From a virus (Duplodnaviria > Heunggongvirae > Uroviricota > Caudoviricetes): a DNA stretch of 16,537 nucleotides. Below are positions 1,405 to 16,537 of this stretch, piece by piece; positions within the stretch are counted from its first letter, which is position 1; each line of letters begins with the position of its first letter. The notes below the pieces were generated by a model. It did not search any database. It worked only from the letters and a program-made list of their open reading frames with translations, and was not told where the DNA came from. The position numbers and the translations under genes are program-made. The stretch lies in the IMG/VR virus record IMGVR_UViG_2703718786_000004; one strand, given 5' to 3'.

Positions 1405-4400
1405 TACCGATATGCTCCACTTAACCGACCACCATCACGGGCCTGCTGTTGCATAAAGTCCGCTGCCGCTTTTTTCCCAAGGTCATAAACCACCTTCAGG
1501 GCAGCCGGACCTATCTGCCCGTTCGTGCCATCGTTATTGATCTCAATGTTGTACTGCGGGGCAAACATCGCCATACCTGAACCACCAATATCCGCCACAA
1601 CCCCCAGCTTACCGTCAGCACCACGACGCAGTGGCAGAATGGCTTCAGGTCCAGCTTCCCCCATCACACCCGCGCCTTTTGCAAAAGCAAAAAACGTCGG
1701 ACGGTTAACCACCGTGCCACTGTAACGACTCAAATCAGCAGACTGATAAATCCCCCCATTGGCATTCAGGGAAAGGCTGCTGAGATCAAATCCCAGTACA
1801 CTGCCAATCCCTTTTATCGATTTCATCATGGTTGCCTGCGCCAGGATTTTCGCCATATCTGACAGCACCGAAGAGGTGAAGGATTTGAAGTTGAGTTTGC
1901 CGGTAGTGACAAAAGTTGCCAGGCCATTTCCCATGTTGCTGAAGGCTGACGAGAACACCTGTTCTGCTGTTCCTGCCGTATTATCTGCATCCACGGTAAA
2001 ATCCTGAAATGCACGCAGGACTCCGTTTTTCCAGTTACCCTGCACAACTTCAAGCTGTTGCCAGTAACGGCGATTCTCATTCAGTTGTCGGTTCAGGCTC
2101 TCCGTCAGCGCCTGCTCGGCCTTTCTGTAGTCATCCGTGTTATATGCCCCTTTCTGCTCACTATCCCGCCTCAACTGCTCCAGCTGTTGCTGGTATTTCT
2201 GGCGAAGACTCAGTTGTACCTGATATCGCTGCCGCTGCTGATCACCCATACCCACCGTGGCGATATCCAGGTCATGTTGCTGGCGCTGAGCGCGCTCTTC
2301 TTCAGCCAGTTGACTGGTCAGCTGAATTGTTTTTTTCTTCAGCTCGTTGAGTGCCGTCTGTTTCTGAAGCTCCTGCTGTTTTACATCCAGCAGCGTCAGT
2401 GCCTGAATCAGTTCATCTTTACGGGCCAGTACACTCTTTTCATCTGCCGTCAGTTTTTTCCCGTCCAGGTCGCTGATGCGCTGCTGCAGAGCCAGAAGCT
2501 GTTTATGCGCTTCTGTCATCCTTTCCGTGGCAATGCCTGCTGACTGTCTGGCAGCAGCAATCTGTCCTTCCACCTGTGCCTGTTGCTGACTGTACTGCAG
2601 CAATAACCGGGTGGCCTCATCATTACGGGTTTCGCGTGTTTTTTTCTTACCGGATGCCAGGGCTTTCTCGTAACGTTCATTTTCACGTTGTATCGCCGCA
2701 TCCCTGACAGCCTGATCGGCGTACTGCATGGCATTAATACGCGCAATTTCACGCTGATGTCGTGCTGCTTCCGTTTCATTCATCCGGTTCAGTGCAGCAT
2801 TTTCAGCATTACGGCGTTTCTGTTGCTCCTGATAATTCCGCTCTGCCTGCTCTTTTGCATCCTGCAAATCCTTCTGGCGTTTTTTCTCCTGAAGATCGTT
2901 AAGACGCTGCTGATCGTATTCAACCTGAGAAGATGATGCCGTCCAGGGGAGTCTTTTCGCCCGCGACACTTTCTCCTGTAAAGCGGCAATCTGTTCATCC
3001 AGCGAGTCTTCACGACCAATATTCATGGCCGCATCCCAGAAACGACTCCATAAATCAGACAGATACTTCAGCGTACTGCCCAGCGCATTGAGGTTATTAT
3101 CAATATCCGCAGTACGCCGACCGGTTTCCTCTGCCAGTGCAGACATGGCTATCCGTGCCGCATCACTGGACCGCCCCTGCTCTCCAAGGACGCGTATCTG
3201 CTCAAGCTGAGTGGCAGTAAGAAAATGCAGCTCATTGTCCAGAGACTTCGCGGCATTTACAGGATCATCCTTCAGCCGCTCAAACTGATTTATGGTATCG
3301 CTGACCGACTGGCCAACCGATCGCTCCATCTGTGCGGCAGCTCTCGCCACCATACCGATATCGTTTCCACGAAATGCACCACTCCCCACCACCTGAGCCA
3401 GCGCACCGGCTGCAGCATGTTGCGTGATACCATTCCCGGAAATAGCACGACTGAGCGTCCACAGCTGCCCGGCAGTGACTCCGGCATAATGCCCCGTCAG
3501 TGACAGCTGGCGGTTAAATTCTTCCCCCTCCTTCTGACCGTCATACCAGGCTTTACCCAGACCATAGACGGCCGCGGCAATACCGCCAATAACCCCGCCA
3601 AGCATCATGCCTTTCGGTGACATCAGTGTGTCTATCCATCCGGCACGGTTAGCCAGCGTTATTCCGGATCCCCTCAGCGCACCTAAATTTCCGCGGGCCA
3701 GTTCACCTATCAGAACGCCTATCTCCTGACGGGCCGCTGCACTTTTCAGCCCCAGCGAATGCGTGGCTTTTCCTGCCTGCTCCATTTTGCGGATATACAC
3801 TTCTGCAGCACTGCTTACCCCCAGCTGGGCAGCCTTAGCACGAAGCAACTCAGAAGAAGAAAGATTCTGGCGGGTTGCCTGCTCTTTAAGCTGACGGATA
3901 AACGCCACTTTCTGTCGGGTAGCCTCTTCCTCAGCCTGTGTAAGAACACGGGTTTTCGCAGTAACCTCAGAAATCAGCGCCAGATAATCCTGCTGACCAA
4001 TCCCGCCACTGTTTCTGGCCTGTCGGATCTGCTGCTGAATACGCTGTAATTCCTGCAGCCCCGCACTGGCCTGTTTCACACTGTCAATCTGACGATAAAA
4101 CGCAGCAGCCGCTTTATCCTGAGCCTCCGCCAGAGCCATGGCCTGCGCCTGTTCCTCGCGCATTTTCTGGCTCAGCGCCTCCATGCGCTGGCGGGTTTTC
4201 TCCACCTCGCGGGCCATGCGTTCATGAGCCTGTGCGTTCTTCTCCACCGTCTGCGCATGGACGGATGCGGCTGTTGCAGCCGAAGAAGCCGCCTGCGTTG
4301 TCTGCCGGGCGGCCTGAGTCTGACGCTCCATAAAACGCTGCATACGGGCAGAAGACCGTTCTGCATCGCTGGCTGCACCATTCAGAAGGTTTTTGATACG

Positions 4401-4469
4401 GGGGATTTCATTTTTAAACTCTGCCGCATCAATCCCCAAATCAATGACCAGGTTGGCTATCTGGTCCAT
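1404..4469 (-). CDS. H: Tail tape measure protein (lambda gpH-like), about 1021 aa
   Basis: Track ORF 1404..4499 begins at a TTG; the likely start is the ATG at 4469-4467, preceded by GGAGGTG. N-terminus MDQIANLVIDLGIDAAEF resembles lambda H MAEPVGDLVVDLSLDAARF; C-terminus NNDGTNGQIGPAALKVVYD...RDGG is near-identical to the lambda H C-terminus. Long Q/A/E/R-rich helical middle is typical of tape measure proteins. Confidence 0.9.
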   Translation of the reverse strand: MDQIANLVIDLGIDAAEFKNEIPRIKNLLNGAASDAERSSARMQRFMERQTQAARQTTQAASSAATAASVHAQTVEKNAQAHERMAREVEKTRQRMEALSQKMREEQAQAMALAEAQDKAAAAFYRQIDSVKQASAGLQELQRIQQQIRQARNSGGIGQQDYLALISEVTAKTRVLTQAEEEATRQKVAFIRQLKEQATRQNLSSSELLRAKAAQLGVSSAAEVYIRKMEQAGKATHSLGLKSAAARQEIGVLIGELARGNLGALRGSGITLANRAGWIDTLMSPKGMMLGGVIGGIAAAVYGLGKAWYDGQKEGEEFNRQLSLTGHYAGVTAGQLWTLSRAISGNGITQHAAAGALAQVVGSGAFRGNDIGMVARAAAQMERSVGQSVSDTINQFERLKDDPVNAAKSLDNELHFLTATQLEQIRVLGEQGRSSDAARIAMSALAEETGRRTADIDNNLNALGSTLKYLSDLWSRFWDAAMNIGREDSLDEQIAALQEKVSRAKRLPWTASSSQVEYDQQRLNDLQEKKRQKDLQDAKEQAERNYQEQQKRRNAENAALNRMNETEAARHQREIARINAMQYADQAVRDAAIQRENERYEKALASGKKKTRETRNDEATRLLLQYSQQQAQVEGQIAAARQSAGIATERMTEAHKQLLALQQRISDLDGKKLTADEKSVLARKDELIQALTLLDVKQQELQKQTALNELKKKTIQLTSQLAEEERAQRQQHDLDIATVGMGDQQRQRYQVQLSLRQKYQQQLEQLRRDSEQKGAYNTDDYRKAEQALTESLNRQLNENRRYWQQLEVVQGNWKNGVLRAFQDFTVDADNTAGTAEQVFSSAFSNMGNGLATFVTTGKLNFKSFTSSVLSDMAKILAQATMMKSIKGIGSVLGFDLSSLSLNANGGIYQSADLSRYSGTVVNRPTFFAFAKGAGVMGEAGPEAILPLRRGADGKLGVVADIGGSGMAMFAPQYNIEINNDGTNGQIGPAALKVVYDLGKKAAADFMQQQARDGGRLSGAYR

Positions 4470-5168
4470 AACGCACACCTCCGGAAATACCTTCCCCAAG
4501 ATGCATCAGTTCTTCGTCCGTTCGCTCCGGTATCCCGTTCTCTTCCGGTAAAAGGCTGAAATCAGCCACCGCAGCATCACTGCTGCCGGACACCATTCTC
4601 ACGATCAATGCCTTCAGCGAGGCAAACTGCGCATCCATCCACACATCACTGAAGCTCTGCATCCGGAAATAATCGCCCCACTCACCAAGCTCAGTGGCCG
4701 ACATTTCCGACAGCATCCGCCGCCAGTCTGCCCGCCGGAACTCCCGGGCAAGCCGCATGACAAACTGCATTTCCCGCGTCAGGACTTTTCCGGCGTCAGC
4801 GCCTCATGCTCATCATCCCCGGCATTATCAATGGTCCCCATACCGCTCAGCGACAGAACCATCTCCGCCCCCGCACCCAGGGCATCATACGACCATGTTG
4901 TAATAACGGATGCGCAAAGCGTCTCTACATCCTTAGACTGATCCGCATTCCACAGTGAGCGGGAAACCAGCCAGGCATTGATATCCATCCCCATCCGCAG
5001 AAAAGCAATCTGTCGTTCAGCCTCCGGCAGTTCTCCCTCTTCGGCATCAAACTTTGCCGTTCGCTGCTGAACAAACGCCAGATATTCAATTCTCTGCAGC
5101 CCGGACAGCTCACTGAGCACCACGGACTGCTTTTCATAATTAAACGTGCCCTGTTTCAGAAACATCAT
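4441..5168 (-). CDS. T: G-T tail assembly chaperone fusion made by a programmed -1 ribosomal frameshift near the 3' end of G
   Basis: The T-frame ORF is open on the minus strand from 4803 to the stop at 4443-4441 and is in the -1 frame relative to G. The heptamer GGAAAAG (minus strand, plus coordinates 4791-4785) lies one codon before the G stop and is a one-base variant of lambda's GGGAAAG slippery site. Gene order V-G-T-H is the conserved context for this frameshift. The T segment overlaps the H start by about 29 nt. Confidence 0.7.
4779..5168 (-). CDS. G: Tail assembly chaperone G (lambda gpG-like), about 129 aa
   Basis: Track ORF starts at a TTG (5207). The realistic start is ATG 5168-5166 (or the adjacent ATG 5165-5163), preceded by GGTGGAG. 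MMFLKQGTFNYEKQSVVLSELSGLQRIEYLAF resembles lambda G MFLKTESFEHNGVTVTLSELSALQRIEHLAL. Stop TGA at 4781-4779. Confidence 0.85.
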   Translation of the reverse strand: MMFLKQGTFNYEKQSVVLSELSGLQRIEYLAFVQQRTAKFDAEEGELPEAERQIAFLRMGMDINAWLVSRSLWNADQSKDVETLCASVITTWSYDALGAGAEMVLSLSGMGTIDNAGDDEHEALTPEKS

Positions 5169-5180
5169 GTTCTCCACCTG

Positions 5181-5205
5181 AAAAAAAGCCCCGGATAACC
5201 GGGGC
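5181..5205 (-). terminator. Intrinsic terminator-like hairpin between V and G
   Basis: Minus-strand sequence GCCCCGG-TTAT-CCGGGGC followed by TTTTTTT: a perfect 7-bp GC stem, 4-nt loop and 7-U tract, in the 57-nt spacer between the V stop (5226) and the G start (5168). Confidence 0.6.
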
Positions 5206-5225
5206 AAATGATGAGTATCGTCCTG

Positions 5226-5969
5226 TTAACCTGCGGCGCTGACAGCCACCGTAGCCACTGCCACAAAATCGCCGTCAGAAGTCATGCCCACAATGCTGAC
5301 ACTGCCCTGCTTCACGCCTTTCACCGTGGCCACAAGCCCGTTCAGGGTCACCGTGGCAGTCTGTGGATCTGTCGAATGCACACTGATCGCTTTGTCACTG
5401 GCTCCGTCAGGTTTTACTGTAAAGGTCAGCGTGGTGGTTGCTCCCACTTTTACACTGGCAGATGCCGGTGCCACCGTCAGCCCGGTAACGCCCACGGTTT
5501 CAGTGCCTTCCTCTGCCAGATACGGACGCCCCACACCGCTGATTTTCACTGTGCGGGTCATCACGTCTTTTGAGGCAATGGTTTTACCCAGTGAGCTCAG
5601 CCAGCCACGGAAAACATCAACAGTGCCGTTGGGATATTTGATACGAAACGCGCAGACTTCACCGGAGTCGAACAACTGAACCAGTTTTTTCTGCCCGCTG
5701 TCACCCGGACGCCAGGCCAGCGTCGCCGAAGTATCACCAACGGATTTCTGCCCCTGGGTTGTCGTTTTCCAGTCTGCATCTTCATCATCGAGATAAGTGT
5801 CATCTTCTGCATCAGCGGTCATTTCGCCAGGTTGCAGATCCTTCACCATCGCAAGACGCAGCCAGTCAGTGTCCGACAAAGGGTTCGCAAATGCGTCGCC
5901 GTTGCCGGTATACATCCAGAACGTCGTTCCCGCACCTTTCGTTTTTGCCAGTGGATTTGGTGTGGTCAT
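5226..5969 (-). CDS. V: Major tail protein V (lambda gpV-like), about 247 aa
   Basis: Track ORF (5226..6044) has a 25-codon N-terminal extension. The start is reset to ATG 5969-5967, preceded by AAGGAGGTGG. MTTPNPLAKTKGAGTTFWMYTGNGDAFANPLSD...DTYLDDEDADW...KYPNGTVDVFRGW aligns with lambda V ([33 protein letters not shown]...DSYLDDEDADW...RFPNGTVDVFRGW). Confidence 0.9.
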   Translation of the reverse strand: MTTPNPLAKTKGAGTTFWMYTGNGDAFANPLSDTDWLRLAMVKDLQPGEMTADAEDDTYLDDEDADWKTTTQGQKSVGDTSATLAWRPGDSGQKKLVQLFDSGEVCAFRIKYPNGTVDVFRGWLSSLGKTIASKDVMTRTVKISGVGRPYLAEEGTETVGVTGLTVAPASASVKVGATTTLTFTVKPDGASDKAISVHSTDPQTATVTLNGLVATVKGVKQGSVSIVGMTSDGDFVAVATVAVSAAG

Positions 5970-5979
5970 TACCACCTCC

Positions 5980-6381
5980 TTAATTCGTGTACGTGATCTG
6001 GTACGTGATTTCCGCCATCGCCCAGGTGGCCATCTCATTATCACGTTGATAGTTAAAACCGAGTGGGATCAGGGTGTCGATGAGTCCGGAAAGTGCCGGT
6101 ACATCATTCAGGGCCGGGAAAATGGTGCTCTCCATCCACATATCCAGCTCTGAATCCGGTGCTTGTGCCCGGATGAAGACAGCAATATGCAGAACAGCCT
6201 GCCAGTCATCTTCATCCGTCATTTTTCCGGTGTACTGAGCATCACTCAGCCACACCGCCACGGCAGGCAGTTCCTGCGCATCAACAAATGCCGGAAGCCC
6301 GTCAAAAAACGTGGCGCTGTCTCCACACTGTTCCCGAAGGCGTGCCAGTACGACCTGGCGGATTTGTGTATGTCGGTTCAT
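5980..6381 (-). CDS. U: Tail terminator protein U (lambda gpU-like), about 133 aa
   Basis: Start reset to ATG 6381-6379, which overlaps the Z stop (ATGA). MNRHTQIRQVVLARL...ATFFDG.PA.VDA...PAVAVWL...YTG aligns with lambda U (MKHTELRAAVLDAL...ATFFDGRPAVFDE..FPAVAVYL..YTG). Confidence 0.85.
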   Translation of the reverse strand: MNRHTQIRQVVLARLREQCGDSATFFDGLPAFVDAQELPAVAVWLSDAQYTGKMTDEDDWQAVLHIAVFIRAQAPDSELDMWMESTIFPALNDVPALSGLIDTLIPLGFNYQRDNEMATWAMAEITYQITYTN

Positions 6382-6956
6382 CGGGTCAGCCATAACCTCA
6401 GTTGTTGTTTCAGTGCATACCCCAACTGTTTCGGCATTTCCGCAGCAATGATGCGGTCGCGGGCATCTTCAAATGCCTGTGTCAGCGGTCCGGACAACGG
6501 GATTTTCACCACATCAATGGGGTAACGATTTTTGCCATCAATACGCCGCATCACATGCCAGCGACCATTCGCCAGTTGCTGAATAAACGCATCCCGGAAA
6601 AGATATTTACCCACCTTCAGCACACTGCCACGGTACTGCAGTTTTCCACCACGCCGGGCCAGTCCGACCCGGGCTGTCCCCAGCTTAATGGCGGGCAGAT
6701 TGCCCCGGTTGACGCGGATCCTGGCCGTCATTTTTCCTGACGGACTGGCTTTAAACACCCGGACACGCTGACGTACCAGTTTCAGGGGTATCCCTTTCAC
6801 CTGGTTATCTCCCGCAACGGTATTCCCGGCAACCTGCCGGGTGGCAACCGAGACCGCTTTCTGTGCCACACGGTTTATCGCCCATGCGCTGGCCTGTGGC
6901 ACCATACGGGTATCAAGGCTGTTCAGATTGCGGATGGCATTCTCAAGCCCCTTCAT
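6378..6956 (-). CDS. Z: Tail completion protein Z (lambda gpZ-like), 192 aa
   Basis: 192 aa, the same length as lambda Z and in the gpZ position immediately upstream of U; preceded by AGAGGTG. Assignment rests on synteny and size. Confidence 0.8.
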   Translation of the reverse strand: MKGLENAIRNLNSLDTRMVPQASAWAINRVAQKAVSVATRQVAGNTVAGDNQVKGIPLKLVRQRVRVFKASPSGKMTARIRVNRGNLPAIKLGTARVGLARRGGKLQYRGSVLKVGKYLFRDAFIQQLANGRWHVMRRIDGKNRYPIDVVKIPLSGPLTQAFEDARDRIIAAEMPKQLGYALKQQLRLWLTR

Positions 6957-6967
6957 CCCACACCTCT

Positions 6968-7243
6968 TTACTCAATAAAGATCATTGGCTTACCGTTAAA
7001 GCGTTCATGCCGTGTGACCGTCCAATGTTGTCCGTCATAAACAACGCGATCCCCGCGCCGTGGGCGGTATCCCAAAGAAAACACCACCAGAGAGACAGCA
7101 GGTCCGGACAGAGCATTCAGCTCTGCCAGTGTTTCGCCCGGGATCACAGCCATATCGACATCATTAATCGAGGCTGTCTTTCCCATCTTTCTGACCGTGA
7201 TCGCATCCATACGCGCTGCCAGCCGAGAAAAGGGATCAGACAT
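6968..7243 (-). CDS. Small head-tail joining / head completion protein (at the lambda FII position), 91 aa
   Basis: ORF with ATG at 7243-7241 overlapping the end of the upstream gene by 8 nt. It sits between the head genes and Z, where lambda carries FII, but I see no convincing similarity to lambda FII, so the call is positional. Confidence 0.5.
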   Translation of the reverse strand: MSDPFSRLAARMDAITVRKMGKTASINDVDMAVIPGETLAELNALSGPAVSLVVFSLGYRPRRGDRVVYDGQHWTVTRHERFNGKPMIFIE

Positions 7244-7559
7244 TGAGTTTTACCGGCACTTCTTCTGCACTGGTTCCGGCATCTGCCCAGACAACCCCGA
7301 CCAGCGGATCAGAGCCGCTGTTAGTCAGCTGAACTTTTCCGGACTTCAGATAAACCTTCTTACCCGTTTTCATGTCATCCGTTTTCAGCTTAGGCAGGAT
7401 AAACACACCTTCGGTCATGCCGTCGCCTGTTTCACCCTGTGGAATATCGGTCAGCGCCACCGCAAAAACATCACCCACCTGCACCAGATCTCCGCTGCTG
7501 ATGGCTGCACTGGCAACAATCGCCACCGTTTTTCCTTCTTCTACAAAATTCTTTGCCAT
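7236..7559 (-). CDS. Small capsid-associated protein, about 107 aa (DUF2190-like; possible head decoration or stabilisation protein)
   Basis: Track ORF starts at a TTG (7604). The likely start is ATG 7559-7557, preceded by GGAGACAG. MAKNFVEEGKTVAIVASAAISSGDLVQVGDVFAVAL... is the size and Gly/Val-rich beta-type composition I associate with DUF2190 proteins found just downstream of major capsid genes. Family assignment is from memory. Confidence 0.45.
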   Translation of the reverse strand: MAKNFVEEGKTVAIVASAAISSGDLVQVGDVFAVALTDIPQGETGDGMTEGVFILPKLKTDDMKTGKKVYLKSGKVQLTNSGSDPLVGVVWADAGTSAEEVPVKLNV

Positions 7560-7602
7560 AACTGTCTCCGCACAGCCCCGTTCAGGGGCTGATTTCAGGT
7601 AC

Positions 7603-7622
7603 AAAAAAAGCCCTTACGGGCC
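7603..7622 (-). terminator. Weak terminator-like hairpin downstream of the capsid gene
   Basis: Minus strand GCCC-GTAA-GGGC followed by TTTTTTT: only a 4-bp stem with a GNRA-type loop, but a clean 7-U tract, lying between the capsid stop (7646) and the next start (7559). A stronger hairpin follows at 7573-7591 (CAGCCCC-TGAAC-GGGGCTG) with no U tract. Confidence 0.35.
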
Positions 7623-7645
7623 ATCAGAGTTGTTGTCTGCGACGT

Positions 7646-9673
7646 TTACGCCGTACATTTCACCAGACCGCGGTGATCAACTGGCGCGACACCGGCGTCA
7701 ATACGCACTTTCGTTGTCACGCCATCCACACTGAAGCCCTCCATCTGATCAATATATGGCGTATCCACACCGTTGAGATAAGCCACTTCAATCGTATCGG
7801 AGCCTTTGGACGCAGCCAGGTAGAAGGTGGTCTGGCTGTTATCATCAAGACGAGGCTCTGCAATAACGGTCGCAAAATCTTTCACCGGGTTAATAATACC
7901 GGCGTTAATGTCAGCCCCCTTGACACTTGAGGAGCGAATGACCTGGTTAGCAACAGACTCCATCGCCGTCGGTACCAGTACGAACGCAGGACGAATATTC
8001 AGATGACGCTCCCCCTCTTTCTGAACGCGCATCAACTGGCGGGCTTTATCCAGCGATGCCACGTCCATTGCAGCGCTCTCCAGTACGTTTGCATGTTTCG
8101 CTTTATCGAACAGACTTACATTATCTGTGGAGATTTTCGGGTTAGACGTCAGAATGGCATAAACCAGATCGGCAATAGTGGATTTCGCCGCACGGCCCAG
8201 TTTCATCGGGACATCGGTCAGCATATTCAGATCATCATTGATAATGGCCTGACGGGTGATACTGAACAGCTCGCCATAGGTCGCCAGTGCAATAGTGGCC
8301 TGTTTATCTCCGGTGGTGACGTATTTATATTCCGCCCCTTCACGCACCTGACGCAGAGCACTGAAGCCCCCCATACCCACACGATGGGCAATTTTAAAAT
8401 CAGACAACTGACCTTTCCGCGTCCACTGTTCATAGGTTTCAGGGGCATCTTCCCAGCCCTGCAGAATGGCTTTGTTCGCAACATCCAGCAGAATATTACC
8501 GAAGTCAGACGTACTGTGTGTGAACGCCGCACCGACCATCTGCATCGGGTTATAACTGGAAACCCCAATACCCCGTTCAGTCAGTGACATACGGGCATAT
8601 TCACGCAGGGTCATCCCGTTGTAGACATTATCACGTTCGGTTTTTTCAAATCCGGCACGCGCCATCAGCGCCTGGCGGATCCCGTCCCCCACAAAATTAC
8701 CGTTACCGGCATAAATATGAGCCGGGGTATTTTTATTGGATGGCGTGGACTCGCGCCCCATCTCGTTCAACAACTTTTCGCGGGCCTGCTCCAGCGAACA
8801 TTCAGGATCGGCAAGACACTGAGCCTGCAGCGTCTGATAACGCCCGCCAAACATGGCAAACAGATCATTAATACCGTTTACACGCGCTTTTTGCTCTGCC
8901 AGTACCTGCGCACGGATACTGTTTTCATCCACCACGGGTGCTGCTGCCTGCACTGGCGTCCGGGAGGCTGCAGGTTCATCATCCTGTACGCGTGGAGCAC
9001 TGTTGCGTGGCGGAGTAATCATGTTTCGAATGGATTCCGGCATCTTTTTAAATTCCTCTGTACGTTTTGACTGAATACATGCCATTGCCTTAACGGCTGG
9101 CGTTACCTGATCAGCAAATCCCTGTGCCAGACATTCGGCACCGGACATCCAGGTCTCATCCGCCAGCATGGCAGCAATTTCATCGGTGGTTTTCCCGGTT
9201 TTCTGTGCATAAGCGGGTAACAGAACCGCCTCAACCTTATCGAGCAGGTCGGCATAGGTGCGCATGTCCTCCGCATCACCGCCCGTAAAGCCAAATGGTT
9301 TATGAATCATCATGAAGGTGTTTTCCGGCATAATGACCGGGTTTCCCACCATCGCAATGACCGACGCCATTGACGCCGCCACACCGTCGACATAAACGGT
9401 AATGGACGCACCATGTGTTTTCAGCGCATTAAAAATGGCGATGCCTTCAAAGACATCGCCACCCGGTGAATTAATATGGAGATTAATGTGGGTGATATCG
9501 CCCAGTGCATTCAGATCACTGATAAACTGCTTCGCTGTAACACCCCAGAAACCAATCTCGTCATAAATATAAATATCCGCGTCACTCTGGTGACCAGCCT
9601 GCATCCTGAACCAGGAATTATTCTTCGGACTGGTCGTCGGTGTGCTGTGGCTCCTGTCGTTTCGTTGCGGCAC
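7646..9673 (-). CDS. Fused prohead protease (ClpP/S14-like) and major capsid protein, about 675 aa
   Basis: One uninterrupted reading frame. The N-terminal ~200 aa carry ClpP-type catalytic motifs read from the translation: DIYIYDEIG, serine motif GVAASMAS and histidine motif MMIHKP. A Pro/Ala-rich linker and helical segment follow, then a C-terminal ~300 aa that I interpret as the capsid shell domain. Likely start is GTG 9673-9671, with AAGGAGG 5 nt upstream, overlapping the portal 3' end; alternative start ATG 9604. The track's 9865 start is an artefactual extension inside the portal gene. Confidence 0.75.
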   Translation of the reverse strand: MPQRNDRSHSTPTTSPKNNSWFRMQAGHQSDADIYIYDEIGFWGVTAKQFISDLNALGDITHINLHINSPGGDVFEGIAIFNALKTHGASITVYVDGVAASMASVIAMVGNPVIMPENTFMMIHKPFGFTGGDAEDMRTYADLLDKVEAVLLPAYAQKTGKTTDEIAAMLADETWMSGAECLAQGFADQVTPAVKAMACIQSKRTEEFKKMPESIRNMITPPRNSAPRVQDDEPAASRTPVQAAAPVVDENSIRAQVLAEQKARVNGINDLFAMFGGRYQTLQAQCLADPECSLEQAREKLLNEMGRESTPSNKNTPAHIYAGNGNFVGDGIRQALMARAGFEKTERDNVYNGMTLREYARMSLTERGIGVSSYNPMQMVGAAFTHSTSDFGNILLDVANKAILQGWEDAPETYEQWTRKGQLSDFKIAHRVGMGGFSALRQVREGAEYKYVTTGDKQATIALATYGELFSITRQAIINDDLNMLTDVPMKLGRAAKSTIADLVYAILTSNPKISTDNVSLFDKAKHANVLESAAMDVASLDKARQLMRVQKEGERHLNIRPAFVLVPTAMESVANQVIRSSSVKGADINAGIINPVKDFATVIAEPRLDDNSQTTFYLAASKGSDTIEVAYLNGVDTPYIDQMEGFSVDGVTTKVRIDAGVAPVDHRGLVKCTA

Positions 9674-11126
9674 TGCTGCCTCCTTTATCACTGGCCGGAT
9701 CGGTATCAAATACCAGATCCAGCTTGCGGTTTTCATCAATTTCGGCCTTGCGCCGACGTTTGACATCATCCGGATTACGACCACCTGCACGTACCCAGTC
9801 TGATTCTGTCGCCGCTCCACCACGAATCTGGATTTTCCAGGCCTCAGCCTCCTTAACAGGGTCAATCCACGGCATCACTGGTCCGGAATACACCGCGGTA
9901 TACAGTGAAGAACGGTCAAGATCGCGGGGTAGCCTGATAACACCGGATGCCACAGCCTGTTTCAGCCAGGCACGATACATCGGGCGGGTGACGGCACCAA
10001 TAAACCAGTCCTGCAGGATCAGGTAGCCATCAGTAGACTCAACCAGTTCCTGACGCTGGGCGCTGTAAGTGCCGTTATAGTTGCGTGCCGTACTGGAAAA
10101 ACTCAGACGACTGCCCGCCGCCACGGCACGCAACTGACCATTACGAAAAGTTTCAAGGTTAGGATTGGGACGATCCGACTTCACCATTCCGATTTCTTCG
10201 CCGGGTTTCAGATCGTCGTAAATAATGCCTGGCTGAATGGTAAGCTCGCGTTCATTCTCCTTGCTGCCATTACCATCCGGTTCATAGCTCTGCCCGTCGC
10301 CTTTCCGGATGTACATCCCCAGAGCAGCGGCGATCCTTGCTGCAGTCAGCTCAGAATCTTCATACTCTTTCAGGGCACTGAGGCGGATCAGCACACCGGA
10401 CAACAAAGACGTCCCGCGCATCTGGTGCAGACGGCGAACAAATTTAAGATGCAGCATTCGCTCTGCATCCACTTCTTTGGTTTCCATCTGCCGCCCGGAT
10501 ACGGGACGGCTTTTATACACCAGATATTTTTCGGGACGCCCCCAGTCATCAACAAACACGCCCTGATTCAGCCTGTTGCTCTCATCACTGGTCATGGGAA
10601 TAAAGTCCGGCTCGAGCGCCTCCAGCCAGAAATGAACACCGGCAGAAGGCGTCAGGCTGTTTATGCGCCCGGAAACCATCTGGGCAAACACCTCACCATC
10701 GCGCAGCCAGGTACGCAGCATCAGACGTTCCAGCATCGGACGGGTAAACTGCCCGGTGACTTCCGGACTGACAGACCATTCACTCCATCGGGTGCGTATC
10801 TCCGCTGCCAGATCACGGGCAATGGCCCCATTGCGTAATACCGGATGTGGCTCGACAATAATCCCGTTTTTCCCCACCACCCGTTCTTCCAGCTTGTCAA
10901 ATACACCAATAACCAGATCGTGGTTGTTATCAAGGTAACGGGCCTGCTCACGTAACGACACGGCCCCGTACTGGCTTAACTGGTCGGCAGTTCGGTTTTC
11001 CCGCCGGGCTTTGTGTGTCCGCGTCGTTTTTACGGCCTCATAAGCCTGGATCACCGCACGGGAACGCAGCCTTGCCGCTTTCCATCCTGGTGAAAAAACG
11101 CCAATCACATCATCAAGAATTGCCAT
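9618..11126 (-). CDS. Portal protein, about 502 aa
   Basis: Large ORF between the W-like gene and the protease-capsid gene, the conserved portal position. Start reset to ATG 11126-11124, which overlaps the W-like stop (ATGA) and is preceded by GAGG. Acidic C-terminus. Not obviously similar to lambda B. Confidence 0.75.
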   Translation of the reverse strand: MAILDDVIGVFSPGWKAARLRSRAVIQAYEAVKTTRTHKARRENRTADQLSQYGAVSLREQARYLDNNHDLVIGVFDKLEERVVGKNGIIVEPHPVLRNGAIARDLAAEIRTRWSEWSVSPEVTGQFTRPMLERLMLRTWLRDGEVFAQMVSGRINSLTPSAGVHFWLEALEPDFIPMTSDESNRLNQGVFVDDWGRPEKYLVYKSRPVSGRQMETKEVDAERMLHLKFVRRLHQMRGTSLLSGVLIRLSALKEYEDSELTAARIAAALGMYIRKGDGQSYEPDGNGSKENERELTIQPGIIYDDLKPGEEIGMVKSDRPNPNLETFRNGQLRAVAAGSRLSFSSTARNYNGTYSAQRQELVESTDGYLILQDWFIGAVTRPMYRAWLKQAVASGVIRLPRDLDRSSLYTAVYSGPVMPWIDPVKEAEAWKIQIRGGAATESDWVRAGGRNPDDVKRRRKAEIDENRKLDLVFDTDPASDKGGSSAATKRQEPQHTDDQSEE

Positions 11127-11338
11127 CAGAACCTCGCCAGCCGGTACCCGGGATGCCCCCGTCGTCGTGTAATCAGAGCCGCAAGGCGGCGCTCCCACTC
11201 CTGCCGTCCCTGCCGGATCTCAGATAAGTTTTCCATGGTCATCTGCTGACCATTAAAGGTGACGGATTTTCCGTCCAGCACCGCCATTTCAGCTTCCGTA
11301 TAACGCTGAATCATGGCTTCGATATCATTCTGGTTCAT
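11126..11338 (-). CDS. W: Head-tail joining / head completion protein (lambda gpW-like), about 70 aa
   Basis: Small ORF between terminase large subunit and portal, as for lambda W. C-terminal region (...LAALITRRRGHPGYRLARF) resembles the lambda W C-terminus (...TQRRRGPAGFYV). Start ATG 11338-11336 overlaps the terminase stop (ATGA); ATG 11344 is an alternative. Confidence 0.7.
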   Translation of the reverse strand: MNQNDIEAMIQRYTEAEMAVLDGKSVTFNGQQMTMENLSEIRQGRQEWERRLAALITRRRGHPGYRLARF

Positions 11339-13437
11339 AACCATCCTCCGGAAGTCAGCCAGGGGTTAACATCGTCAGTTACTGTTTTCTTCCGTTTTTG
11401 TTTTTTAACAGGCGTGGATACCGGTTCCGGTGAGGGTGACGGTTCGGTACTGTCCGGGACACACTCCAGCCAGGTTTCCCGGCTCGCCCACTCCGGTGCA
11501 TCCGGCCAGCGGATCTTTTCGTATCCATGCAGAATGACCAGAGCCTCGGCATACACCATCAGGTCAAAAGCTTCGTTGGCACCGCGACCCGGCTTACTCC
11601 ATTTCCCGTCACTACTCCGCTCTTCATACGTCAGTTCGTCGTAAAACCAGCTCCCCAGCCAGTCAGGGAAATGCACATAGCCGGGACCTGGCGAGTCACG
11701 CCATAACGCGTTATTCACCCGGTCTTTCAGGGCATCCGTCTGAAGAAGCCAGAGCGGCACATCACCTGCGGCCTGCGCCCGTCGGCCCGTTCGTCCGGTG
11801 TTATCAGGGAATGTACGGGTGATCAGTTTTGCGCGCCGGATGCTGTCGCCCTTAAACAGGTAAATACGTTTACCAAGGCCATCACGACGGCAACGACGCC
11901 AGAATTTATAGGCATTATCAGTGACCCCGTCTTCACCGCCGGAGTCCACCGCCATTGCCATCAGTCGCATTTGTTGAGAAGGATCGGAGGCCAGCGGCCA
12001 GCTTTTATGAAAAACATCCGTCAGCAGGACATCCCAGTCTTCCGGATAGCTGGCCGGATCAATTCGCTGGCTCTCCCCGTCGCTGTCACCGCGCAATGAC
12101 TGCGTGATGTTGTAACGATCAATAATCCAGCGTTCGCCACGGCTGCCATAGCCCGTTACCTGAACCACAAAACGGCGATGACGTCCCGCCTGCACATCAA
12201 CTGTCGCCACCAGGAAATTAACGCCATCCGGCACACTGCGGGAAGGAACTGGCTCTGCCCGCTGCTCAAGCAGTTCACTTTTTCGTTGCTCCATGCTGGC
12301 ACGGGGAAGATAAGGTAATCCCCAGTCGGTATTGATAACCGTCTTGAGTGTTTCTTCACTTCCGGTTGTCTCGTATTCCTGTTCTGCAGTAAGCAGTTTG
12401 TAAACGAGTTGCGAGAGTGTCTGGTAAGCAGCTGCCGGACCCTCCATCCAGAATGACGCAATACGTGAGCGTCGGGGATCACCATAACGACTGCCATCCG
12501 CATTGATGGATTCACCATCCCGCAACCAGACCCCACGTCCGTTCAGCTCACGTTTTTGTTCAGGCATAATCCGTCCTGAACAGGAAGGACACTGAATATA
12601 AGCCGCCTCACTTGCCAGCACGGGATCGGCAATATCACGGAAACCAGCAACCACATCGCCGCAGGGCTGAAAATACTCACCACAGTGTGGACAGGGCCAG
12701 TACCAGCGACGGCGATCGCCACGGTTATAGAGCGACAGTATCCCCGTGGTTGGTGGAGCCTCATGCGGTGAAGTCCGTCGCCATTTCACATCCTTCACAT
12801 CCCTGCCGGGGGAACTCTCCACCAGCGTCATACCACTGGACATAAATGTGGTGGTACGTTTTGAGGCAAGAGAGAAGGCATCCCCCTCGCCATCAATATC
12901 TTCCGGAAAACGGTCATAATCCGTCAGCGCCACGCATTTATAATCTGATGAGGACATGATATTGACTGACGGCCAGCCGATTTTCAGGTAGTTGCCAGCA
13001 AGGAATGTTCTGTCATAAACGTTGTTGTCATTTTTGTTCGGACTCAGGCGACTGACCACTTCCGGGCTGACGCGAAACGTTCTGGCAAGTCGTTTTTTGG
13101 AGTGTTCGCGGGCTTTTTCCTCCGTCATCTGAATGATCAGCATATCCGCAGGATCGCAAATCACGTTGTAAATCACCCAGCCGTCAATCAGGCCGATAGT
13201 CTTGCCAGTTCGTGCCGGGCCAACAAATATCACTGCGTCGTATTCACGCGAGGCCAGGCAGTTCATCGGCTCAATAACATACGGTGCCACCAGCGGATCC
13301 CACGGGACTGAGTTCCCGGCCCCCATGGGCACCCGCATATACTGAGCAACGGCATCAGCAACCCGCATTCGTCTCGGTGCGCGAAGGATATAACCTGAAT
13401 CGGTTCGTGCTGCCTTTGCGGTTTCCTGATTCAGCAT
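11335..13437 (-). CDS. Terminase large subunit (lambda gpA family), 700 aa
   Basis: N-terminal Walker A-like VGPARTGKT; the CPHCGE zinc-finger-like motif also present in lambda gpA (CPHCGEE); size and position immediately downstream of the small subunit, with overlapping start/stop. Confidence 0.9.
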   Translation of the reverse strand: MLNQETAKAARTDSGYILRAPRRMRVADAVAQYMRVPMGAGNSVPWDPLVAPYVIEPMNCLASREYDAVIFVGPARTGKTIGLIDGWVIYNVICDPADMLIIQMTEEKAREHSKKRLARTFRVSPEVVSRLSPNKNDNNVYDRTFLAGNYLKIGWPSVNIMSSSDYKCVALTDYDRFPEDIDGEGDAFSLASKRTTTFMSSGMTLVESSPGRDVKDVKWRRTSPHEAPPTTGILSLYNRGDRRRWYWPCPHCGEYFQPCGDVVAGFRDIADPVLASEAAYIQCPSCSGRIMPEQKRELNGRGVWLRDGESINADGSRYGDPRRSRIASFWMEGPAAAYQTLSQLVYKLLTAEQEYETTGSEETLKTVINTDWGLPYLPRASMEQRKSELLEQRAEPVPSRSVPDGVNFLVATVDVQAGRHRRFVVQVTGYGSRGERWIIDRYNITQSLRGDSDGESQRIDPASYPEDWDVLLTDVFHKSWPLASDPSQQMRLMAMAVDSGGEDGVTDNAYKFWRRCRRDGLGKRIYLFKGDSIRRAKLITRTFPDNTGRTGRRAQAAGDVPLWLLQTDALKDRVNNALWRDSPGPGYVHFPDWLGSWFYDELTYEERSSDGKWSKPGRGANEAFDLMVYAEALVILHGYEKIRWPDAPEWASRETWLECVPDSTEPSPSPEPVSTPVKKQKRKKTVTDDVNPWLTSGGWL

Positions 13438-13931
13438 TACTCCTCCTGCTGTAATTCCTCCTCATCATCCGCACCTGCTTCAGTCACCCGCAGGGCTATC
13501 TGATCGCGCAGATCATCAATAATGGACTGAACACGGCTCACAGCGGCAGGCTGCAGACCGCAGTCACGTTCCAGAATATCCGGTAATGTCTCCAGCACCT
13601 GCACGACCGCTTTTGCCCAGATGGCAAACTCCCGTCTGACATCACTGGCCGGAATGAGTTGTGCCGTTTCCTGTTCGAACTTAAGACGCTCACGTTCAGA
13701 CTGATACCAGGCTTTGCGCTCATGCGCGTCCATTTCGCCTTCTGCAACCGGCGGTGGCAATGCCAGAAATGCCGACACAATATCAACCACCCGATAAAGC
13801 TTGAGGTTGCTTTCATGCCCCCCTGCAACGGGTAGATTTTGCAGCCTTGCCGCAGCAGTCTGGCGATGTACACCTGACAGTGCCGCCAGTTGACTGATAT
13901 TCAGCGTCAGATTTTTTAACTCTCGATCCAT
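13437..13931 (-). CDS. Terminase small subunit (Nu1-like), 164 aa
   Basis: First gene downstream of the cos site, about 175 nt from cosN as in lambda. N-terminal helix-turn-helix-like segment (LNISQLAALSGVHRQTAAARL) and acidic C-terminus; its stop overlaps the large-subunit ATG. Confidence 0.8.
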   Translation of the reverse strand: MDRELKNLTLNISQLAALSGVHRQTAAARLQNLPVAGGHESNLKLYRVVDIVSAFLALPPPVAEGEMDAHERKAWYQSERERLKFEQETAQLIPASDVRREFAIWAKAVVQVLETLPDILERDCGLQPAAVSRVQSIIDDLRDQIALRVTEAGADDEEELQQEE

Positions 13932-14150
13932 ACCCGCTCCAGAATGTTTTAAACATGCATCTTGCGAACAACTTTAGGCAAACGGTGTTAGTGATGAACA
14001 AAAAACAATCAAAATCGACACCGCAAAAATAAAACTACTGCAATATCAATCAATTACAGCAGTGGCGATGACGAATGAAATTTCAAAAACTAGCCTTTTT
14101 CCGCGACGCTCCCGCCCCGTGGCAGGCCACCCCACCGGGAGGACCCGTCA
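13932..14150 (-). other. cos site: cosQ-like and cosN-like elements plus an A/T-rich cosB region
   Basis: Minus strand reads ...ACGGGTCCTCCCGGTGGGGTGGCCTGCCACG-GGGCGGGAGCGT-CGCGG..., against lambda ...ACGGGTCCTTTCCGGTGATCCGACAGGTTACG-GGGCGGCGACCT-CGCGGG... (lambda sequence from memory). The cosN-like 12-mer is at plus 14106-14117. The A/T-rich stretch from there to the terminase small subunit start corresponds to cosB. Confidence 0.75.
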
Positions 14151-14511
14151 GCCTGACAGCTCTGACGAACGTCTGATACAACGCCTTGCATGAATGGCAT
14201 CGGGATAATCCAGAAAGGCATAGCATCGTGCCCACAAGAATCTGTGTAAGTGTCCTGTTTCTTCCACCCCCGCACAGGACTGGCGAGCATGAGGGACAAA
14301 CCCGCGAACCATAAACGCGGTAAAAACCCGGTGTGCATCGTTTTTGATTATTCCCGCACACTCGCGCAGAAGGAGTTCCCCGTCGGGCTACGGTCTCTGT
14401 TAATACGGGAATACGGCGACGATACAGCGCATGATGTGTCAGGCTTGAATACCTTTATCCGTTAAAAGGGATATCAGTTAAGCTATCCCGTGTAGGGTAT
14501 AAGCCATTATC

Positions 14512-14545
14512 AAAGCCACTCTGTAGGGAGTGGCTTTTGTAATGG
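14512..14545 (+). terminator. Terminator-like hairpin readable on the plus strand
   Basis: AAAGCCACTC-TGTAGG-GAGTGGCTTT (10-bp perfect stem) followed by TGTAATGG; the U tract is partly inside the stem. It lies about 45 nt after the stop of a small plus-strand ORF (14289..14465). Confidence 0.35.
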
Positions 14546-14573
14546 CAATAAAAAGCCCCGCGAATGCGAGGCT
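14546..14573 (-). terminator. Intrinsic terminator-like hairpin downstream of Rz/Rz1
   Basis: Minus strand AGCCUCGC-AUUC-GCGGGGCU (8-bp stem with one G-U pair) followed by UUUUAUU, about 175 nt after the Rz stop. Confidence 0.5.
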
Positions 14574-14746
14574 AAATCCTGGTATTTGTAATGACTGGCT
14601 CTTATCTCAACGCAGCCCCTTACCGCGCGCAAGATGCTCAATATCAAGCATCAGCAATGAGATGTTTAATCTGGATTCACTCCAGAAGTGATCACCATCC
14701 TGTCTACAGAGCCAGATGTGAAGGATGATGAGTAAAATTATCGCTA

Positions 14747-15214
14747 TCATCGAAGGCATTGCGTCCTGATGTATTCCTGAAGCGTTCTCAGTGCTGTTTG
14801 GTCGCGGATAATTCCGTCCCGGATACCGAGAACGTTTCGTCCAGCAACTGGAGAGAGTTCGACGGTGGCATCATTGCCCATGCCGGAGGCGCTGGAGGTT
14901 TCGGCTGAGGATGGCACAGGGCATTTTCCTTTGACGAACACCCGACCACCATTATCAAGCTTGCGCCGAAGAGCATCATTTTCAGCTTTCGCATCAGCTA
15001 ACTCCTTCGTGTATTTAGCATCGAGTGCATCAGCAGAACGCTGGCGCTGCTGCATGTCAGTAATGGTGGCGGTCGCCTGCTTCAGCTCACTGACTTTTTT
15101 ATCTCGCTGTTCTTTGTAGGCGATGGCGTTATCACGGTAATGATTGACCGCCCACGACAGGCAGACGATGATGCAGATAACCAGAGCGGAGATAATCGCG
15201 GTTACTCTGCTCAT
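14747..15214 (-). CDS. Rz: Rz i-spanin (lambda Rz-like), about 155 aa
   Basis: [37 protein letters not shown]...ITDMQ.RQR...[21 protein letters not shown] is near-identical to lambda Rz over the N-terminal half. Start reset to ATG 15214-15212, overlapping the endolysin stop (ATGA). Confidence 0.9.
14788..14994 (-). CDS. Rz1: Rz1 o-spanin lipoprotein, embedded in the +1 frame of Rz, 68 aa
   Basis: Entirely within Rz in a different frame. [19 protein letters not shown] carries a lipobox-like VVGC; Pro-rich mature region [16 protein letters not shown] parallels lambda Rz1 (…VVVGC…KPPPPPAW…). Confidence 0.85.
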
Positions 15215-15708
15215 TGTTGCCCCCACAAACAGACTTCACGCTCAATCTCACGACGAGTCATCAGGCCTTTCCATTGCTTACCGCCAGCGTATATCCAGCG
15301 ACGTAGCTGGTCACATGCGCCTTTGATATCGCCCTGGTTTATTTTGCGAAGAAGCGTCGATGTTCTGAAATTGCCAGCACCCACGTTGTAGACGAACGAG
15401 TAAAGAGCGCCGCGCGTTGTTTCCGGTATATCGACTTTGATGTACGGGTTAATTTGTCTGGCAACCGTGGCAAGGTCTTTATTCAGGAGGGCTTTGCATT
15501 CTGCTTCGGTATACGTTTTACCGAGCATGATGTCTTTTCCGGTGTGTCCGTGACATACAGTCCATACGCCAACGATATCTTTGTATGGTATGTAGCTGAC
15601 ACCTTCCAGGCCATCGTCACCACTTGGGCCAGTGATTAACACTGATGCTATAGCAATTGCTCCGCCACCAATAGCAGCAGCAACTGCTTTTCGTAATGAT
15701 GGAGGCAT
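15211..15708 (-). CDS. R: SAR endolysin (phage 21 R21-type, T4-lysozyme fold), 165 aa
   Basis: N-terminal Gly/Ala-rich weakly hydrophobic segment [20 protein letters not shown] (signal-anchor-release domain), then lysozyme catalytic region (GLEG...[10 protein letters not shown]...). Sequence matches phage 21 R as I recall it. Confidence 0.9.
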
Positions 15709-15923
15709 TATTCACCTCTCGCAGCCTTGCGCTTATCTTCTTTAATCTTGAAATAAAGGTTTGTCAGGTACGTCAGCAGGCCAAATACCAGGCTACCCAG
15801 CACACCTATTGCTGCCCACTGTGAGGGCGTGACTTTATCGAGCAGCTGTAAAAACCAGTAACCGGCACTACCTGCTGAGGTGCCATAGGCGACACCCGTT
15901 GTTAACTTATCCATGGATTTCAT
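15708..15923 (-). CDS. S: Pinholin (phage 21 S21-type) with dual-start motif, 71 aa
   Basis: Track ORF starts at a TTG (15989) inside the upstream terminator; the real start is ATG 15923, preceded by GAGGTGG. MKSMDK...GSAGYWFLQ...[32 protein letters not shown] matches S21. Met1-Lys-Ser-Met4 gives the antiholin (71 aa) and holin (68 aa) starts. Its stop overlaps the endolysin ATG. Confidence 0.9.
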
Positions 15924-15958
15924 AACCCCACCTCGCAGATGCGGGTGCTGTGTAATGG

Positions 15959-15984
15959 AAATAAAAAGGCCACCTGACGTGGCC
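15959..15984 (-). terminator. Intrinsic terminator-like hairpin between the methyltransferase-like ORF and the holin gene
   Basis: Minus strand GGCCAC-GUCAG-GUGGCC followed by UUUUUAUUU, beginning within 10 nt of the upstream ORF stop (15991) and ending about 35 nt before the holin ATG. Confidence 0.5.
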
Positions 15985-15990
15985 ACCAAA

Positions 15991-16416
15991 TTATTTCCCC
16001 ACCAGCTCGTTTATCTCTTTCACTGTCTGGTTAAACCGCTCTGACTCAAGCTCAACACCTAAGGCCCGACGCCCCAGCGCCATTGCTGCTTTTATTGTGG
16101 AACCGGATCCCATAAAAAAATCAGCAACCAGATCACCAGGTCGACTACTGGCATTGATTATTTGCCTGAGCATATCCGCCGGTTTCTCACACGGATGTTT
16201 ACCCGGGTAGAACTGAACGGGTTTATGCATCCAGACATCGGTATAAGGCACGGAGACAGATACGGAGAAATAGCGCCGGAGAGATTTAAACTCATCCAGC
16301 AATTCAGAATATTTGCGATTCAGTGAATCATAAGATGCCACCAGCTGGTGGTGTGGTTGTTCCAGTTGTTGTTCCTGAAACTTCTCTGTATGAAGTGGCC
16401 AACTGAATTTGTCCAC
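15991..16416 (-). CDS. DNA methyltransferase-like ORF, 141 aa (beta-class N6/N4 C-terminal SAM-binding region only; possibly truncated or degenerate)
   Basis: C-terminal half has the motif pair ...HPCEKP...[14 protein letters not shown]..., typical of the SAM-binding end of beta-class DNA methyltransferases. No canonical DPPY/NPPY catalytic motif is present (closest is SVPYTD). The ORF begins at GTG 16416, and the frame is closed 18 nt upstream by a TAG. Confidence 0.5.
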
Positions 16417-16537
16417 CTGAACAGAGGTGATATGCTAACCTCAGAACAACACAGGTGCTCCAATGAAATAAAGAAATTTCAGCGCAGCGTTTAAACGCGA
16501 ATCTGCTCAACTGGTTGATGACCAGAAATACACGGTG

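Follow-up and report, generated by a model that had tools for sequence, protein, structure and literature searches.

The 141-aa open reading frame (ORF) located next to the lysis genes in the window, i.e., the whole stretch of 16,537 nucleotides of virus record IMGVR_UViG_2703718786_000004 analyzed here, is very probably the downstream part, the last third, of a 350-aa M.EcoGII-family methyltransferase gene broken by the insertion sequence IS911. According to this reading, the ORF resembles a methyltransferase and has no DPPY motif because IS911 cut the gene, leaving its 3′ piece in view.

The chimeric ORF occupies positions 15,991..16,416 of the minus strand, with a GTG start codon at 16,414–16,416. 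A pattern search found the SAM-binding FxGxG motif in it, present as FFMGSGST, together with HPCEKP. Motif IV, (D/N/S)PP(Y/F/W/H), was not found in the 141-aa ORF, and a DPPY-like segment is also absent from the three minus-strand frames of 16,417–16,537. The in-frame codons 5′ of the ORF up to and including its start are TAG CAT ATC ACC TCT GTT CAG GTG; that is, the frame is closed 18 nt upstream. All of this agrees with the original prediction, which had described a 141-aa ORF with a GTG start and a SAM-binding region but without DPPY/NPPY, closed 18 nt upstream by a stop codon and not preceded by a DPPY-encoding segment in any of the three frames up to the window edge. The Pfam profile PF01555 (N6_N4_Mtase) matches the ORF with E = 8e-24, but only at profile positions 132–220 of 221, which is the C-terminal part. 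The NCBIfam methyltransferase models likewise match only with their C-terminal quarter, at 42–45 bits vs. cut-offs of 244–830. A complete beta-class domain of about 350 aa, comprising both halves of the Rossmann fold and the target-recognition domain, is not contained in the ORF. The profile search and the alignment to full-length methyltransferases, both recommended earlier as a way of finding the deletion or fusion point, recovered a C-terminal domain part only and placed the fusion point at 16,387/16,388.

A megablast search against phage genomes indicated that the similarity of the window with the Ayreon, cdtI, mEp460, and SfV phages begins abruptly at 16,387/16,388 and continues downstream through the holin gene. 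The segment 15,991..16,387 (minus strand) is the 3′ fragment of an M.EcoGII-family gene of a beta-class adenine DNA methyltransferase; it includes the last base of codon 219, codons 220–350, and the stop codon, and it has motif I but not motif IV. Three parts can be distinguished in the ORF itself. Codons 1–8, including the GTG, are the left inverted repeat of IS911; codons 9–10 lie across the IS/gene junction; and codons 11–141 (131 codons) correspond to methyltransferase residues 220–350. The left inverted repeat of IS911 supplies an in-frame GTG and eight codons by chance. If the common IS911 sequence is put in place of the variant found in the window, the same 141-codon ORF is obtained, beginning with MAKFSVPLHT.

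The intact gene is 1053 nt in length and encodes 350 aa. In the extracted locus of the Ayreon phage it is located at 2346–3398, and the match with the window starts at 3001; from gene base 656 on, the DNA of the window is 99.6% identical to that of Ayreon, and the first 655–656 nt are missing. The order of the genes in Ayreon, cdtI, and SfV is as follows: antiterminator Q, some small ORFs, methyltransferase, terminator, and holin. The level of DNA identity over the retained part is 93–99% for the orthologues of Ayreon (ATE85487.1), cdtI (gp56, YP_001272569.1), SfV (orf48, NP_599080.1), and mEp460. They occupy the same place, after Q and before the terminator and the holin; however, they are uninterrupted 1053-nt genes, whereas in the window IS911 has split off or removed the initial 656 nt. 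The earlier suggestion that the ORF is a remnant of a phage orphan methyltransferase at the Q–S junction is thus supported by intact 350-aa homologues located exactly there in Ayreon, cdtI, and SfV. An anti-restriction role, which had also been proposed, is plausible for the intact gene (PMC5778455). As for tRNAs as another cargo of the Q–S junction, a tRNA scan found none in the window.

The translated intact gene contains TDPPYF at residues 34–39 (DPPY at 35–38) and FFMGSGST near the C-terminus; the DPPY region of the intact allele has a ATTGTCACTGATCCGCCGTAT-like sequence. A comparison of the intact protein with solved structures gave two separate matched stretches, approximately residues 9–115 (the N-terminal catalytic part) and 281–347 (the C-terminal SAM-binding part), both of which align to beta-class enzymes such as M.RsrI, M1.MboII, CcrM, and DpnA. 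The ORF of the window retains only the second of them. The intact Ayreon protein (gp53) is 81% identical to M.EcoGII over 349 aa, and the ORF shares 73% identity over about 130 aa with M.EcoGII residues 220–348; the M.EcoGII sequence used here comes from the supplement of the SUPREM paper (PMC11551740) and was machine-read from a PDF, which may have introduced errors at a few residues. M.EcoGII is a non-specific adenine methyltransferase from a prophage of E. coli O104:H4, silent in the lysogen and harmful under constitutive expression. M.EcoGII and the intact allele considered here have the same beta-class order, namely DPPY, target-recognition domain, and FxGxG, and each belongs to a prophage and stays silent in the lysogen. 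In contrast, what the window encodes is limited to the last 131 residues; it lacks DPPY, the dimer interface, and the N-terminal fold half.

The full-length gene was found in 1158 of the 5426 complete E. coli genomes, and the DNA of the fragment is 99.8% identical to intact E. coli alleles. This level of identity indicates that the disruption is recent; the frame has remained open because there was too little time for it to decay, not because of selection. A copy of the methyltransferase gene covering bases 692–1053 only is present in E. coli 2-331 (NZ_CP110117.1, 1682902–1683263). Its break point is unlike that of the window; therefore, truncation of this gene has happened at least twice.

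Across the junction lies the left end of IS911, a member of the IS3 family (16,391..16,537, plus strand). Its left inverted repeat begins with TGAAGTGG at 16,391, and the ATG of orfA is at 16,463, reading out of the window. Alignment to the E. coli 377323_2f and Sf6 copies confirmed the IS911 terminal inverted repeat, 5′-TGAAGTGG, followed by the orfA start. The level of identity of 16,391–16,537 with the IS911 elements of the Sf6 and SfII phages and of E. coli is 93–94.6%, and IS911 matches to this segment occur in about half of the complete E. coli genomes. At the insertion site, IS911 faces opposite to the late genes. A 3-bp filler (16,388..16,390; GTA on the plus strand, TAC on the minus strand) is located between the IS911 tip and the methyltransferase fragment. 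It does not repeat the left flank, GGC, and base 16,388 can be assigned equally well to the methyltransferase gene.

The prophage is also found in the genome of E. coli 377323_2f (NZ_CP039404.1), where 8638 nt align with 99.88% identity and the junction, TAC filler included, is the same. The order there is Q with small ORFs, a 656-nt 5′ fragment of the methyltransferase gene, a 1249-bp IS911 on the opposite strand, TAC, the 3′ fragment, holin, endolysin, and Rz. The 656-nt fragment encodes DPPY and is 99.7% identical to Ayreon; its frame terminates 10 IS-encoded residues past the break (VVNKNWPPS, with one split codon shared). The IS911 of this genome is complete (1249 bp), has an intact transposase gene with the programmed frameshift, and is annotated as 'IS3-like element IS911 family transposase'. 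In RefSeq it is flanked by the pseudogenes E9097_RS04255 and E9097_RS04265, both flagged as incomplete; the label 'incomplete; missing N-terminus' is already given for this pair. A second, unrelated 'phage N-6-adenine-methyltransferase' is encoded in the early region of the 377323_2f prophage (1005–1658 of the locus); therefore, loss of the M.EcoGII-like gene would not strip the phage of all methyltransferases.

The IS junction was found in only one of the 5426 complete E. coli genomes. A junction-pattern search also revealed one IMG/VR contig, which is 99.98% identical to positions 2814–16,410 of the window, has the same junction, and stops 22 nt into the IS; the pattern had no match in GTDB representative genomes or metagenome contigs. 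Present in three assemblies, the junction is real and inherited. The edge of the window at 16,537, 147 nt into IS911, probably reflects where the assembly broke in a repeat rather than a biological boundary, since the IMG/VR contig breaks at the same repeat. By analogy with the sister genome 377323_2f, the 5′ piece with DPPY would be expected about 1.1 kb past the window edge in the window's own genome as well. It had been supposed that the N-terminal catalytic domain might be supplied in frame by the sequence beyond the window through a sequencing-error frameshift. In 377323_2f the N-terminal part does lie beyond the position of the window edge; however, it is separated from the ORF by the 1249-bp IS911, and no frameshift is involved. 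A frameshift or a sequencing error as the explanation of the missing part is ruled out, since the break is an IS junction found in three assemblies.

The junctions in 377323_2f can be compared directly with the intact gene, which reads ...AGCGGC/AGAGAAG at the break (the slash marks the break point). The left junction is AGCGGC/TGAAGTGG, and the right one is CCACTTCA/TAC/AGAGAAG. The insert is therefore the IS plus 3 bp without target duplication, with GGC on the left vs. TAC on the right (6896–6898 and 8148–8150 of the 377323_2f locus), and the intact target has no TAC. IS911 ordinarily makes a 3-bp target duplication. Since there is none here, the insertion was not a textbook transposition. 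The IS911 of the Sf6 phage has the same boundaries, TGAAGTGG...CCACTTCA, and the same length of 1249 bp, and is inserted into gene 54 (ninG), a non-essential gene of a lambdoid/P22-like phage; unlike the methyltransferase insertion, it is flanked by a normal 3-bp duplication, AAC.

Absent target duplications often signal IS-mediated rearrangement. This leaves some room for the 5′ part of the gene having been lost, either through an adjacent deletion mediated by IS911 or through recombination among copies of the IS, in which case the remnant would still be a pseudogene. In addition to the junction without target duplication, such a deletion would be compatible with the fact that the window stops within the IS, with the far side out of view, and with the IS end of the window being another variant than the 377323_2f copy. 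However, the right junction with the unusual TAC is identical in 377323_2f and the IMG/VR contig, and the flanks are at least 99.9% identical, which points to a single inherited event; moreover, both halves of the gene are present in 377323_2f and are contiguous except for the IS. A deletion is thus very unlikely.

In IS911 circles, the two ends abut with 3–4 bp of former flanking DNA left between them (PMC2909936). The TAC, whose 3 bp fit the length of this spacer, may be such a circle-junction spacer, brought in by a non-canonical 'targeted' integration of IS911 at a site that adjoins a weak likeness to the right inverted repeat, although we regard this as a doubtful, rather improbable explanation. 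The likeness is located 19–31 nt away from the insertion target (AACAACAACTGG vs. AACAAAAACTGG), and its best local score is 10. Among background 50-nt windows, 1.8% reach this inverted-repeat score, so the likeness is too weak to claim. Less likely than targeted integration is selection, within the lysogen, for knocking out a toxic methyltransferase that modifies adenine non-specifically.

As for the function of the fragment, inspection by eye revealed no Shine–Dalgarno-like sequence upstream of the internal ATGs or within the 25 nt that precede the GTG (AGGTTAGCATATCACCTCTGTTCAG; ...ATATCACCTCTGTTCAG GTG). A promoter scan found no sigma-70-like promoter in 15,650–16,537 on either strand; therefore, there is no support for an outward promoter borne by the IS and driving the fragment. 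In the AlphaFold-based domain map of M.EcoGII, the catalytic fold is formed by residues 1–134 and 260–349, the target-recognition domain by residues 160–237, and the subunit interface by residues 97–110 and 116–140 (PMC11551740). For beta-class enzymes, it has been argued that activity requires dimerization (PMC7544214). The fragment holds one of the two catalytic-fold segments (260–349), without residues 1–134, the catalytic motif, and the dimer interface. Judging by these missing parts, methyl transfer to adenine N6 would not be expected from it, and we infer that the fragment is most likely an inert, non-functional pseudogene piece.

The original prediction had offered a miniaturized non-catalytic derivative as the alternative to a remnant. 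If functional and retained by selection, such a derivative might, for example, bind SAM or act in regulation. The frame is indeed open for 141 codons, and the motif I region is intact. However, the start codon and the N-terminus, i.e., the first 9–10 codons, are IS911 and junction sequence, and the break coincides with the IS tip, so that a family of about 140 aa is not needed to explain the ORF. In addition, the translation and promoter signals mentioned above were not found, and residues 260–349 stand alone in a fold that also needs residues 1–134, with the dimer interface absent. An exact-sequence look-up of the 141-aa product gave no record in a large gene catalogue, and the allele occurs in one of 5426 complete E. 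coli genomes vs. 1158 with the full gene. Taken together, this makes a functional derivative extremely improbable.

Equally improbable is a split enzyme, whose N- and C-terminal fragments would both be produced at induction and come together again as a non-specific adenine methyltransferase with restored activity. Both halves are undamaged besides the break in 377323_2f, the 5′ piece retains its own start, and some C5 methyltransferases are known to allow complementation by fragments. To our knowledge, there is no precedent for it in beta-class enzymes. The break is located at residue 219, inside the helix bundle of the target-recognition domain (160–237) and not at a domain boundary, and the C-terminal piece has no visible translation signals.

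All IS911 copies found differ from the IS end of the window at nine positions. Over its 147 nt there are nine substitutions relative to the copy at the same site in 377323_2f, eight of them transversions, vs. one difference in the adjoining 8.5 kb. The prophage, the insertion point, and the TAC are the same; however, the IS911 of 377323_2f is the common variant, whereas in the window the differences include a TAA at codon 3 of orfA. As sequenced, orfA of the window reads ATG AAA TAA (16,463–16,471) instead of the ATG AAA AAA of other copies, which is a nonsense codon in both orfA and orfAB. The best IS911 match to the IS end of the window among the 5426 complete E. coli genomes is 94.6% identical, and no exact match to this IS-tip variant was found in GTDB representative genomes, IMG/VR, or metagenome contigs. 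These private substitutions may be explained either by errors at the contig end or by conversion from an unsampled relative of IS911; whichever the cause, they leave the main conclusion untouched. The ending of the window in a repeat and nine private substitutions that look like low-quality sequence could also suggest an assembly artefact, a chimeric join of the prophage contig to an IS911 read pile, but there is next to no chance of this, since an independent IMG/VR contig and a complete, closed genome both have this junction. Chimeric assembly as the source of the junction is refuted by them, and only the substitutions could still be errors.

The fragment is followed by the lysis region. Between the methyltransferase stop codon and the holin gene there is a GC-rich hairpin with a T run, resembling an intrinsic terminator (15,958..15,984, minus strand); in Ayreon and SfV this same element carries a terminator annotation. 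Both of these phages have a further terminator upstream of the methyltransferase, which places the gene between terminators within the late operon. The first lysis gene downstream of the remnant encodes a phage-21-type, essD-like holin of 71 aa (15,708..15,923, minus strand), corresponding to essD (WP_000839596.1) at 8615–8830 of the 377323_2f locus. The holin begins with MKSMDK; its two Met codons, separated by three codon positions, point to a dual start. It is followed by the rrrD-like endolysin gene (15,211..15,708, minus strand) and then by Rz. The endolysin has a hydrophobic N-terminal segment that appears typical of signal-anchor-release (SAR) endolysins.

The following history can be proposed for the gene interrupted by IS911. 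The late operon of a lambdoid prophage would have included an ordinary 350-aa beta-class N6-adenine methyltransferase gene, placed between Q and a lysis cassette of the phage-21 type. IS911 would then have entered at codon 219, within the target-recognition domain, and the 5′ piece would have kept DPPY, the dimer interface, the Rossmann-fold residues 1–134, and the larger part of the target-recognition domain. At induction, Q-modified polymerase starting from pR′ probably transcribes the IS and the 3′ piece passively, toward the lysis genes; this read-through is proposed because of what is known of lambdoid late operons and because of where Ayreon and SfV have Q and their terminators. IS911 is tolerated within the genome of the Sf6 phage.

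The IS911-broken allele is already recorded as a RefSeq pseudogene in the sister genome 377323_2f. What looks like a motif-less 'mini methyltransferase' beside the lysis cassette is a copy, broken by an IS, of a prophage gene that is very common, and it is of little consequence. For annotation, this means that no protein should be called from an ORF whose start lies in the inverted repeat of an IS at the end of a contig. As for the phage itself, a prophage with the broken allele should yield virion DNA without the heavy non-specific adenine methylation expected of M.EcoGII-type enzymes. Such virions could be more exposed to restriction in new hosts, which would be a minor consequence.
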